From: an uncultured Nitrososphaerota archaeon
Lineage (GTDB): Archaea > Thermoproteota > Nitrososphaeria > Nitrososphaerales > CADDZS01
Length of the DNA stretch: 64,000 nucleotides
Reading direction: 5' to 3'
Assembly (NCBI GenBank): GCA_963799845.1
Contig: CAWCYI010000006.1
Coordinates: 1 to 64,000 of the forward strand
A program made the position numbers. The number at the start of each line of letters is the position of its first letter. The stretch's first letter is position 1. Of this stretch, positions 36,001 through 39,000 are shown piece after piece.

Positions 36001-39000
36001 CGTTCGGACGTTTGAACAGAGGGAAGATTTTTTCGAAATAGCGGGGAAGAATATCGAAAAAGCAGGGATGCGACCTTTTGTCAAAATGGAGATGGCAAAT
36101 CTCCTCGGTTCATCGCTAGAAGCTCAATTTTATGATCTAGCTATGCTCGATACAGGTGACCCGTGGACCCTTCTCGAGACCGCTCACGCATCTCTCAAAG
36201 GTTCGGGATTCGTATTTTGCATCTGCCCAACGACAAATCAGCTTGAGAACGTTGCCTTCGCGATGGAGGGCAAGTTTGTGGATATCGAGTGCATTGAGAT
36301 CATGTTTCGACGAATTGAAGCGCGAGTCGGGAAAACGAGGCCCTCAACTAGGATGATAGGACATACATGCTATTTGGCCTCGGGGCGGAAAGTCAACAGC
36401 CGCGTTGAAAATGTTATATCATCTGATAAAATGGAAGAATAATTTGTAAGATGTCCTCCAAAGACTTTGGAGAAGATTCCGCCTTTCTCCTCTACCTTGT
36501 GCCCGTTGTCGCTAGCATCATCTATGGTGCGTATGAATGGGCGATAACAGCAAAGACTTCCACGATGCCTCCGACTGCCTATCTGGTGGTTTCGAAAAGC
36601 CCCTACCTTTTTCTGATTTCCATAGTCGCTGTTTGCTTGGCACTAATCCTTGAAGTAAGGACGGCTAACGCGAACGAGCGAAACGGCATCATCCAGGCAA
36701 ACACGACCAGACTGCAGATACTTGCGGTAGTAGTTCTGGTTATCTCATTTTTGGCTGCTTTGAGCACTGCGAGTTATGATTTTGGAAATGCCTTTTCGTA
36801 CTTCGTGAACGGCAGATATGCTTTGATCTATGCCTTCTTTTTGATCGGCATCTCGTTGCTGTTGTCGCCGAAACAGGTCCTCGGAAACGTCAAGATGGCT
36901 TCGATTCCGGACATTCTCGGATTGCTCCTGGTTGTTGTTTCGCCGGTGCTTTTCTATTTTGGTCTGAAGGTTCATCTTGGGTTCACGGCGAGCGCGGTAG
37001 GTAGTTTTATTGTCGCGATAATCGGATTTGTCTTGCTGGTCGGCGGATCAAAGTTGTTTGGCAAAAAGGCGCAAAAACCAGCGACATCTCCTCAGGTCGC
37101 TTCTCCCGCCCCAAGTTAGTACAGCAAAAAACCTAGGCCCTGAGGTATTCATATCCTTACGGCCTAAAATCCTAAGGTCGAACGCTAGATACTTGCCATG
37201 GTTGAACTTTGTTAGGGCGGGCCGTCGTTCATTTTGTTCGAGATATATTTCGCCAAACTTTTCCTCAAAATCGCATAGCTCCGGGGTTTGAAATATGCTT
37301 GCATCCATCCTATTCTGATCGCGAGCGGTGGTGTAGGTTAGGCAAATACCGGGAGCTCACGGTGAGAGCAGTGTCAGCAAGACATGCCTACTAGTTTTTC
37401 TGCCAACACGGGCGTAGTGTCAGCCTTTGAGCTAAAAGCGACAACGAGATCGAAAGATCTAATGCTCCTGAGGGACCCTACAAGGCTAGCTCCAGATGAT
37501 AGTGATGCTCAGAGGGCGGGTGATAATTCCGCCATGGCTTGTGGAATCTTTGCCGAAAACAAGTCCTACTATCCAACCCCGTAGAAAGCCGATCAACGTC
37601 AAGGTAGATGGAGCAACAGATCAGTGATGAGCTGAACTAACAGTAATTGCAGTGGAGGCGCTCGAAGAGAGGTAATTCGTGTCTCCCGAATACATCGCAG
37701 ATATTTGCTGCGATCCAGTACTGGACCGTTTGAAGGAAACTGTGCACGTTAGCGTGTTTGAACTAACGAAGCAATGCTGCGAACTAAAAGTCCCGGTGCC
37801 TCCTTAATTACTAAAGCTAATCGTGCCGGCAGGCGGATTGCCAGCTATCGCGGTTGCACTGCAAAATGTACTCCGACCGACACCGAGCTTGGAGGGGAGG
37901 CAGAATATGGAACGTTATGGGCCCGGAGGGATTTGAACCCTCGACCGACCGGTTTCTCTATCTCATCAGCGCACCCAGAATTCAGTGGAGATTTATGAGC
38001 CGGTCGCTTTCGGCAAGCCGCATCATGCTTCGCATTTTCTACCAAGCTGAGCTACGGGCCCATCCAAGCGATCAGAACTGTTTCAAGGTCTCGTTATTTG
38101 CTTTTTGCCTCTTTAAGGTCACATTATTACTCTTCTGAAGTCCGTTTTCGATTTCAGTTTTTTTCAAGAATTTCGATTCTTACAGTGGTTTGAATCCTAT
38201 CAAAACAAGTTAATCGAGATGGCTTGTATGAACCATATCGGCCCTTAGTCTACTCGTTGATCGAGAGAAGAAAGAAGCTCGCGGAGCTGGTTATCGAAGT
38301 AGAAAGAATATGAATTATGTAATGCACTTATTCGAAATGGGTGATTCTTATTTATCTCTAAGTCACGAAGCGTTAAAACAAGTTGAAAGTGGAAAAGAAG
38401 ACAAAATCTCTGACAAACAGTCAGAAAATTAGTCGGCTATCACTACCCATAATTGTTCTTGTAATCTTTGTATTGTTCATCACCTCATACGGAAGAGAAC
38501 CCAGTTTCTTGGCCACCATCTCCGCTGATCGTTCAAATTTCGTTTCGTTCCTGCAAATGATCGTCACAATTATGGCGCTGATAATTTCGTTTGACGGCGT
38601 TATTTTTGTAGAGATAACAAAATCATTATCCGAACAGACACGGCATCTTAAGGAAGTAGCAAAGCAAAAGGAGAAATTGCTTGATACAATCAAAGTGAGC
38701 TTGTCATCAATATCGGAACCAGAACCTATCGCGAAAACAGAAGAGGAAAAACTCAGGTCGCAAGACGAACCTACGGAACGGTCGAAGCTTCAGCCTTCAA
38801 AAGCAGACCTCTTGGGCGATGAAACAATTTATTCTGTGGTAAGCGTCTTTAATTCCGAAGCAGATCTGTTTCTGCCTGTCTTTGATCGCATCTTTCGGAT
38901 CAATTATTTCTGCTTTGTACTTGATGATTGTCTTGCCACCTGACTTAGCATTCTTTTTATCGTGCTTGGGGTTTGCTGTTTTAGGGATTGCAGCATTCGG

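Follow-up and report, generated by a model that had tools for sequence, protein, structure and literature searches.

A CAU tRNA gene with two predicted introns in a Nitrososphaerales archaeon whose tRNA genes are almost all interrupted

Results

Two interrupted tRNA genes

The window, the 64,000-nt stretch of an uncultured archaeal genome analysed here, carries two tRNA genes and the gene for a tRNA splicing endonuclease subunit. The first tRNA gene has the anticodon CAU (elongator Met or Ile2) and occupies 144 nt of the minus strand (37918..38061), running from nt 1 to discriminator A73 without an encoded CCA. The genome-wide survey's note had placed it at 37919-38061; the locus is real, and the discriminator at 37918 also belongs to the gene. 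Infernal matched it to the Rfam tRNA model (38061-37918, minus strand) at 43.2 bits, only with inserts of 36 and 42 nt opened, as the note had reported (43 bits).

We used a solver that combines scoring of bulge-helix-bulge (BHB) motifs with scoring of the cloverleaf. It placed the introns at pre-tRNA positions 24-53 and 69-108, with a cloverleaf score of 75 and a total of 82.5. Shuffling the interior of the gene (n=200) gave a mean of 55.3 and a maximum of 72.5, and 82.5 was reached in 0 of 200 shuffles. ARAGORN, run without its intron mode, recognised the spliced product of 74 nt as a full-length tRNA with anticodon cat. With introns allowed, it read the gene as Gln-CTG with one 48-nt intron, a mis-call.

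On the minus strand, exon 1 (23 nt, 38039..38061) holds the acceptor 5' strand, the D-stem 5' strand, the D loop and the first nucleotide of the D-stem 3' strand. Intron 1 (30 nt, 38009..38038; BHB tuple (4,8,2,1)) follows in the D arm at site 22/23. Exon 2 (15 nt, 37994..38008) comprises the remaining D stem, nt 26, the anticodon-stem 5' strand and the loop to nt 37, and is followed by intron 2 (40 nt, 37954..37993; BHB tuple (3,8,5,7)) at the canonical site 37/38. Exon 3 (36 nt, 37918..37953) contains nt 38, the anticodon-stem 3' strand, variable loop, T arm, acceptor 3' strand and discriminator. All three exons are collinear within the 144 nt, so the gene at 37918-38061 is neither split nor permuted.

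The two junction pairs differ in quality. Intron 1 has a fully paired central helix (UGGU/GCCG, 4/4) with 3-nt bulges (AG|A and AA|A) and weak flanking helices (h' 2, h 1), making it a relaxed motif of the HBh' type. The survey's note had put this intron after nt 23 in sequential numbering, which is standard site 22/23, and only the 23|24 register gives the 4/4 central helix. In intron 2 the central helix (CUCA/AGAG) is 3/4 paired, with one A-A mismatch, in a motif of otherwise standard shape, where h is the anticodon stem lengthened to 7 pairs and h' has 5 pairs. The minimum-free-energy fold of the precursor contains the stem-bulge-stem of intron 2; the intron 1 motif is absent from it.

The second gene, tRNA-Glu(UUC), lies on the plus strand (39183..39316; 134 nt, 76 nt spliced) and was delimited by spliced alignment to an uninterrupted relative with which it shares 66 of 76 positions. 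Its single 58-nt intron interrupts the T loop at site 59/60 (39245..39302, plus strand; BHB tuple (4,9,0,5)), with a fully paired central helix (UUCA/UGAA, 4/4) and the 5-bp T stem as h. ARAGORN reads the spliced product as Glu-ttc. Its 'uninterrupted' tRNA at 39182-39258 is a mis-call, a version that receives only 21.4 bits from Infernal.

The inserts of the two genes, at 30-58 nt, are too short for self-splicing group I or group II introns. Rfam searches found tRNA only, with no catalytic intron family between 37700 and 39500 at E up to 1 and no group I or group II intron in the whole window at gathering score.

tRNA genes across the genome

For the whole genome we gave up a BHB-only solver and instead aligned the loci, with splicing allowed, to 76 reference tRNAs of two intron-poor relatives (G037 and G027). 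Until it was anchored on these relatives, the BHB-only solver gave wrong anticodons for long loci, calling C6:1422306 Gln-CTG, for example. The survey's note had likewise called the details of its home-made solver provisional, with 12 genes left open.

The curated set holds 42 loci with 42 different anticodons and no duplicates. It covers 42 of the usual 46 anticodons; four (Pro-UGG, Arg-CCG, Val-GAC and Val-CAC) were not found, and no redundant intact copies appeared, in the search seeded with the 76 reference tRNAs from two relatives. All but one of the 42 genes are interrupted, by 73 introns in total (1.74 per gene), with a single intron in 17 genes, two in 16 and three in eight, so that 24/42 have two or three. 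Outside site 37/38 lie 44 of the 73 introns, four of them in the T loop. Readings with four introns for Ser-GGA (C7:180521) and Trp (C6:236052-236265) came from a low-penalty alignment, and inspection left three introns in each.

These counts bear out the survey's main claim, that nearly every tRNA gene is interrupted, many of them several times and at non-canonical sites. Its statement that standard finders see fewer than half of the genes also holds: Infernal yields 12 matches above its cut-off across the genome, under one third of the 42 loci. The figures for ARAGORN -i were reproduced (35 calls, six with 'introns' of 336-1737 nt), and repeating the T-arm and acceptor-stem scan returned 33 credible loci, one of 76 nt including the discriminator and the others of 90-229 nt. 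The survey's total of 33-35 loci was too low, the actual set being at least 42. As its note anticipated, the scan misses tRNAs interrupted in the T arm: four genes have T-loop introns, tRNA-Glu at 39183-39316 among them. The Ile, Tyr, Asn and Trp genes for which it had no solution are all present, and all interrupted.

ARAGORN recognised 40 of the 42 spliced products as full length with the expected anticodon, a count made before the splice of Leu-GAG was revised. The Ala genes have G3:U70, and long variable arms are restricted to Leu and Ser anticodons.

Of the 73 introns, 41 have a 4/4 paired central helix and 27 a 3/4 paired one, a count that is partly circular, as some loci were picked by a solver that rewards the motif. 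Five introns have fewer than 3/4 central pairs, three of them in the D arm (Ile-GAU, Asp-GUC and Arg-UCG), one of 88 nt in the second CAU tRNA and one at 37/38 of Glu-CUC; either their boundaries are unsure or they have another geometry. The canonical motif sits at the exact boundary of 37 of the 73 introns. When boundaries were set by homology only, it occurred within ±3 nt in 27 of 65, against 18% after intron shuffling. The relaxed motif is uninformative as a test, as 97% of shuffled introns reach 3/4 central pairs or better within ±3 nt. Comparing all 73 introns with one another for intron families or transposition gave one chance 11-nt match only.

Conserved exons and changing introns

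The CAU orthologues of six other family genomes (G004, G007, G009, G010, G011 and G012) have inserts at both sites and exons identical to those of the genome analysed here (G000). Their site-22/23 introns are 20-44 nt long and share GCC[AG] followed by a 2-nt bulge at the 3' end, and their site-37/38 introns, of 23-48 nt, mostly end in TGAG plus 2 nt. Apart from these 3'-end motifs the intron sequences cannot be aligned. In G006 and G008 BLAST matched both ends of the gene and the solver returned no solution. Among sister-family genomes, G027 has an uninterrupted 74-nt orthologue that agrees with the spliced CAU product at 68/74 positions, and a canonical intron of 12-13 nt is the sole intron in G025, G032 and G015.

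Site 59/60 of tRNA-Glu is occupied in seven other family genomes, by introns of 17-80 nt, and one genome has a canonical intron only. In both tRNA-Glu(UUC) and tRNA-Ala(GGC) the occupied intron sites vary between genomes with identical exons.

Splicing enzymes

The 186-aa product of the gene at 28511..29071 (plus strand; PF01974 and PF02778) is the tRNA splicing endonuclease's catalytic alpha subunit. Its best solved relative is 3p1z_B (E 2.8e-37), to which the Tyr, His and Lys positions align. The lysine of the Crenarchaea-specific loop aligns to K44, the loop Lys named in an excerpt of PMC5829648. A second paralogue, in the region C6:111288-111542, has its catalytic His replaced and is a candidate beta subunit. 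The genome also encodes an RtcB ligase, a 3'-phosphate RNA ligase (PF01139, 575 bits, C1:50921-52240). By its sequence, the alpha/beta pair has the loop that confers broad specificity and would be able to cut relaxed motifs. The alpha subunit at 28511-29071 is presumably the trans-acting enzyme that removes these introns.

Discussion

We are confident that the CAU gene encodes a precursor whose 74-nt body lies in exons of 23, 15 and 36 nt, separated by two protein-spliced archaeal introns, and that the enzymes concerned are present. Exons identical across 7-9 genomes, with inserts that have diverged, indicate selection on the spliced product.

How the precursor would be cut and joined, and in what order, we infer from sequence. 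In the transcript each exon-intron junction pair would fold as a bulge-helix-bulge, a 4-nt exon stretch close upstream of the 5' cut pairing with a 4-nt intron stretch close upstream of the 3' cut and leaving a 3-nt bulge on each strand. A heteromeric (alpha-beta)2 splicing endonuclease, whose catalytic subunit gene is 9 kb away, would cut within both bulges, and RtcB ligase would then join the exons. Intron 2 would present a near-standard motif atop the anticodon stem, while intron 1 would present a relaxed D-arm motif that probably only the broad-specificity type of enzyme could manage. Of the 42 tRNA genes found in the genome, 41 share this arrangement, which is a family-wide trait.

It is highly improbable that the interrupted loci are decaying pseudogenes or relics with random insertions, the functional tRNAs lying elsewhere, in the missing part of the genome or in a form outside the search. 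The genome is a bin that is 86.7% complete, so about 13% of it is missing, five inserts have no recognisable motif, and two genes show odd single-base features. Against decay, each of the 42 loci has an anticodon of its own, the search seeded with the 76 reference tRNAs turned up no redundant intact copies, and the exons stay identical across 7-9 genomes whose inserts diverge. Even less probable is that the inserts are artefacts of assembly or binning. Contamination of the bin is 4.9%, and the tRNA-Gln and tRNA-Ile genes have probable single-base indels, but six to nine other family genomes, assembled independently, have inserts at the same sites. In two runs, short-read contigs also reproduce the CAU locus with 0 differences (37918-38220 and 37892-38059), both runs being from one study and one of them possibly the source sample. 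A search of sequencing runs for 37700-39500 turned up no RNA run that contains it, and the four runs compared with it gave DNA contigs only. Short-read contigs of other organisms match exon 3 and diverge exactly at 37953/37954.

Within the CAU gene, the point that Infernal chose for its 36-nt insert, after the third D-loop position, would put the first intron in the D loop after about nt 16 instead of at 22/23. This placement leaves a C-A mismatch in the D stem and loses the conserved GG of the D loop, whereas with the 23|24 register the D arm is again of standard form, like that of the uninterrupted orthologue, and this register, with its fully paired central helix, fits all seven family sequences; we think the D-loop position very unlikely. 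The identity of the product is much more evenly balanced. Archaea that decode AUA with a modified CAU anticodon need three CAU tRNA genes, and this genome has three: the initiator, the gene at 37918-38061 and the 229-nt gene at C6:1422306-1422534. The product may thus be the minor isoleucine tRNA, Ile2, with the 229-nt gene as elongator Met, a possibility we put at somewhat below even. When tRNAs were ranked by identity to the product, the relatives' CAU tRNAs labelled Met came first (68 and 63 matches), labels that come from ARAGORN, which cannot separate Ile2 from Met. Ile-GAU followed with 54-56 matches, level with Arg, Trp and Lys. With either identity, the precursor we propose keeps its introns at sites 22/23 and 37/38.

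The host belongs to a non-marine family of Nitrososphaerales (Thaumarchaeota), and the whole family has the intron trait. Archaeal tRNA genes with several introns are well documented in Thermoproteales, Thaumarchaeota and Asgard archaea, so the novelty here is one of degree and lineage, not mechanism. Multiple non-canonical introns are textbook knowledge for Crenarchaeota and Thaumarchaeota, and the intron models of tRNAscan-SE 2.0 include one specific to Thaumarchaeota (PMC8450103). As here, Thermoproteales have up to three protein-spliced introns per gene, BHB or relaxed motifs, many non-canonical sites including 22/23 and 59/60, and an (alpha-beta)2 endonuclease with the specific loop. The present host differs in belonging to another phylum-level lineage (Nitrososphaerales) and in its soil setting, presumably a mesophilic one. 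Pyrobaculum calidifontis, of the Thermoproteales, has 71 introns in 46 tRNA genes (PMC8450103; PMC4090602), slightly fewer per gene (1.54 versus 1.74). Related introns recur across genes in Thermoproteales (bioRxiv 10.64898/2026.10.13.758758), whereas no intron family is common to several tRNA genes of this genome.

Closer to this lineage, in the same phylum or its neighbourhood, other Thaumarchaeota and Ca. Caldiarchaeum subterraneum have the same type of enzyme and introns at D-, V- and T-arm sites. The difference is of degree: 13 of 46 tRNA genes are interrupted in Ca. Caldiarchaeum, three of them by multiple introns (PMC3082918), compared with 41 of 42 here. In sister-family genomes, ARAGORN called five introns among the 43 genes that Infernal detected in G037, and five among 33 in G027. 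Some Asgard families resemble this one, with almost all genes interrupted, a D arm rich in introns that annotators miss, and repeated gains without copying between genes. The focal Asgard families belong to another phylum and are more heavily loaded, averaging 2.2 introns per gene with a maximum of five. In the excerpts of that study its panels include no Nitrososphaerota, with 0 occurrences of 'Nitroso' or 'Thaumarchaeota' (bioRxiv 10.64898/2026.10.13.758758). In the red alga Cyanidioschyzon merolae, too, a single tRNA gene can contain several introns that depend on a BHB and lie at non-canonical sites; its genome is a eukaryotic nuclear one that has permuted tRNA genes as well (PMC3728597). 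No permuted or split tRNA genes came to light in the archaeal genome, where no search aimed at them was made.

On balance we lean towards regarding this soil family as a third lineage with near-saturating tRNA interruption (98% of genes, with a mean of about 1.7 introns), so far unreported and independent of Thermoproteales and Asgard archaea. Our literature search found no report on the tRNA introns of this Nitrososphaerales family.

The trait affects how these genomes are judged. Infernal finds 5-23 tRNA matches per genome in the family and 18-43 in the sister families, so that family members would fail quality criteria based on tRNA counts and have their decoding capacity misjudged. ARAGORN mis-assigns several tRNA genes, including both in the window.

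From genus to genus, introns still appear to be gained and lost. The nearly identical exons and differing intron sites of the family are useful for work on how introns enter archaeal tRNA genes, which is still an open question. If the picture is right, extreme intron accumulation extends to a soil thaumarchaeal lineage, and the family would provide mesophilic genomes, close relatives of one another, where individual intron gains may be dated and their mechanism sought.

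Structure of the CAU tRNA gene

The tRNA gene at 37918-38061 of the window (minus strand) is easily overlooked. The Rfam tRNA model, run with Infernal on 38061-37918, reached 43.2 bits only with inserts of 36 and 42 nt opened, and ARAGORN without introns made no call. In intron mode ARAGORN read the locus as Gln-CTG with one 48-nt intron. Our solver, which enumerates candidate introns from the published bulge-helix-bulge (BHB) geometry and then rates how well the spliced product forms a cloverleaf, instead gave the anticodon CAU and two introns. In the geometry used, the four exon nucleotides 5' of the 5' bulge pair with the four intron nucleotides 5' of the 3' bulge, the bulges are 3 nt long and the cut follows the second bulge nucleotide.

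The solver divides the precursor into exon 1 (pre-tRNA 1-23, window 38061-38039, 23 nt), intron 1 (24-53, 38038-38009, 30 nt), exon 2 (54-68, 38008-37994, 15 nt), intron 2 (69-108, 37993-37954, 40 nt) and exon 3 (109-144, 37953-37918, 36 nt), all on the minus strand. None of 200 interior shuffles matched its total score of 82.5 (mean 55.3, maximum 72.5), and ARAGORN without intron mode recognised the predicted 74-nt spliced product as a full-length tRNA. Its isotype may be Met or Ile2. Two sequencing runs of a single study, one of which may be the source sample, gave short-read contigs that reproduce the locus with no differences. Exon 3 is also matched by short-read contigs of other organisms, which diverge exactly at its boundary with intron 2 (37953/37954).

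Intron 2 occupies the canonical site 37/38. Three of the four pairs of its central helix form, between loop nucleotides 32-35 (CUCA) and AGAG in the intron, flanked by an outer helix of seven pairs through the anticodon stem and an inner helix of 5 bp formed by the intron; the minimum-free-energy fold of the precursor displays this shape. Intron 1 lies between standard nucleotides 22 and 23, a site among those given in a review (PMC4090602). Its central helix is fully paired (4/4), D-loop UGGU with GCCG close to the intron's 3' end, and its bulges are AG|A and AA|A. As the flanking helices are weak, we class the motif as relaxed, and it is absent from the minimum-free-energy fold. The genome-wide survey's note had put this intron after nucleotide 23 in sequential numbering, and Infernal in the D-loop. 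Site and motif anatomy both agree with the note; its placement is therefore right and Infernal's is not.

The strongest support for the two-intron structure comes from comparison with relatives, made by a DNA search of 40 of them followed by running the solver on the retrieved loci. Six genomes of the same non-marine Nitrososphaerales family (G004, G007, G009, G010, G011 and G012) have inserts at both sites and exons identical to ours. Their introns 1 (20-44 nt) and 2 (23-48 nt) are dissimilar in sequence except for parts of the motif: GCC[AG] and a 2-nt bulge before AGCG in intron 1 and, for the most part, TGAG followed by 2 nt in intron 2. The solver set intron 1 one nucleotide rightward in five of the six, and by-eye reading of the sequences found that a 23|24 cut suits all seven. 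In G025, G032 and G015, which lie outside the family, a canonical intron of 12-13 nt is the sole interruption. Also outside it, G039 combines a canonical intron with a different D-loop intron, and G027 has no intron, its 74-nt gene matching the spliced product at 68/74 positions.

Neighbouring features

The window contains a second interrupted tRNA gene, tRNA-Glu(UUC) (39183-39316, plus strand), with a 58-nt T-loop intron at site 59/60 (39245-39302, plus strand). Here UUCA pairs with UGAA (4/4) and the T stem takes the role of the anticodon stem. An "uninterrupted" tRNA-Glu called by ARAGORN at 39182-39258 is a mis-call, a version that Infernal scores at 21.4 bits. One low-depth short-read contig links 38110 to 39143, omitting the 1 kb that separates the tRNA genes; its shorter side is only 26 nt. 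At 35615-36442, 1.5 kb from the CAU gene, an ORF carries a GCD14/TrmI-type tRNA methyltransferase domain (PF08704, E 6e-25); Pfam gave no match for two further ORFs, at 36451-37119 and 38383-38943.

The genome encodes two splicing endonuclease paralogues and the ligase RtcB. The predicted alpha subunit (28511-29071, 186 aa), 9 kb from the CAU gene, most resembles the catalytic alpha subunit of Aeropyrum pernix (3p1z_B, E 2.8e-37). The Tyr, His and Lys are kept, and a Lys aligns with K44 of the Crenarchaea-specific loop, which is described as conferring broad substrate specificity (PMC5829648). The putative beta paralogue (232 aa), elsewhere on the same contig (C6:111288-111542), lacks the catalytic His, as expected of a structural beta subunit.

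tRNA introns across the genome

A scan for T-arms with a 7-bp acceptor stem gave 33 credible loci, one of 76 nt and the others of 90-229 nt. Because the BHB-only solver mis-assigned long loci, we adopted spliced alignment to reference tRNAs, aligning every locus with long gaps free to 76 tRNA genes of two intron-poor relatives (G037 and G027). Using these references as seeds across the whole genome added nine genes: the initiator, Tyr, Trp, Phe, Asn, Lys-UUU, Thr-CGU, Thr-GGU and the window's Glu-UUC. The curated set comprises 42 loci with 42 different anticodons; from the usual 46, this seeded search did not find Pro-UGG, Arg-CCG, Val-GAC or Val-CAC. The bin that makes up this genome is incomplete and probably contains indels.

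All but one of these genes (41/42) are interrupted. They carry 73 introns, or 1.74 per gene (at least 68 with a harsher, conservative gap penalty), with 17 genes having one, 16 two, eight three and one none. Median intron length is 30 nt (range 14-88). In approximate standard numbering, 29 introns are at 37/38, nine at 15/16, seven at 30/31, four at 59/60, three each at 22/23 and 29/30, two at 8/9 and 16 at other sites. ARAGORN without intron mode recognised 40 of the 42 products as full-length tRNAs with their expected anticodons; one miss was a one-nucleotide splice error, since corrected, and the other the uninterrupted Gln gene. Two independent checks were consistent: G3:U70 is present in all three Ala genes, and long variable arms are confined to tRNAs with a Leu or Ser anticodon.

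The central helix is fully paired in 41 of the 73 introns, 3/4 paired in 27 and less so in five. There is some circularity in this count, since a motif-rewarding solver picked part of the set. With boundaries set by homology only, the canonical motif fell within 3 nt either side in 27/65 introns, against 18% of shuffled introns; the relaxed class carried no information in this test. The boundaries of five introns are unsure.

Several loci are unusual. The sole uninterrupted gene, Gln-CUG (C8:78364-78439), has an extra T that gives an 8-nt anticodon loop. Since its orthologues in G006, G009 and G011 have normal 7-nt loops, an assembly indel is likelier than a frameshift-reading tRNA. In tRNA-Ile(GAU) (C4:3439-3566) three bases, not two, separate the acceptor and D stems, and no splice motif can be recognised in the D-arm insert; this may reflect an indel, a wrongly placed boundary or an unusual structure. 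The 88-nt insert of a second CAU tRNA (C6:1422306-1422534) and the 44-nt insert of Glu-CUC at site 37/38 (C6:539980-540141) form fewer than 3/4 central pairs in any register compatible with the mature sequence, and may be nested introns or have bulge-helix-loop geometry. Isolated perfect 14-17-nt copies of the T-arm core, away from any assemblable tRNA gene (C4:928510, 930447, 934599, 1373318, 1374979, 1377223 and 1749178; C6:899540, 900520 and 940189; C7:12000; C8:4619; C3:30762), may represent remnants of attachment sites, repeat elements or chance matches.

Spread within the family

A neighbouring glutamine synthetase shares 90% identity with that of a soil 'Nitrososphaerales archaeon' genome, and 59-68% with those of Gagatemarchaeum, Caldarchaeum and others. 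Infernal found 5-23 tRNAs per genome (median 12) in 11 other family genomes, G001 aside, and 18-43 (median 29) in 28 genomes of 19 sister families. For Gly-GCC, both intron sites are kept in all nine family genomes holding the locus and the exons are identical bar one base, with introns of 27-90 and 22-50 nt. The exons of Glu-UUC are identical yet its intron sites vary: the T-loop intron is alone in the genome under study, G004, G006 and G012, accompanied by the canonical intron in G007, G008, G009 and G010, and absent from G011, where the canonical intron stands alone. Ala-GGC has only a D-loop intron in our genome and G002, this and an anticodon-stem intron in G006 and G008, and only the latter in G007, G009, G010 and G011. 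tRNA intron richness is therefore family-wide, and intron sites turn over between genera.

Multiple non-canonical tRNA introns are described as established for Crenarchaeota and Thaumarchaeota in PMC8450103, which cites a record of 71 introns in the 46 genes of P. calidifontis and a mean of 0.84 per gene for Thermoproteales. In Ca. Caldiarchaeum 13/46 genes are reported as interrupted (PMC3082918). Some Asgard families reach 2.2 intervening sequences per gene and a maximum of five in one gene, according to a 2026 preprint whose sampling did not include Nitrososphaerota (bioRxiv 10.64898/2026.10.13.758758). Our literature search found no published report on the tRNA introns of this Nitrososphaerales family. 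What is new is the degree of interruption and the lineage in which it occurs; the predicted mechanism is ordinary.
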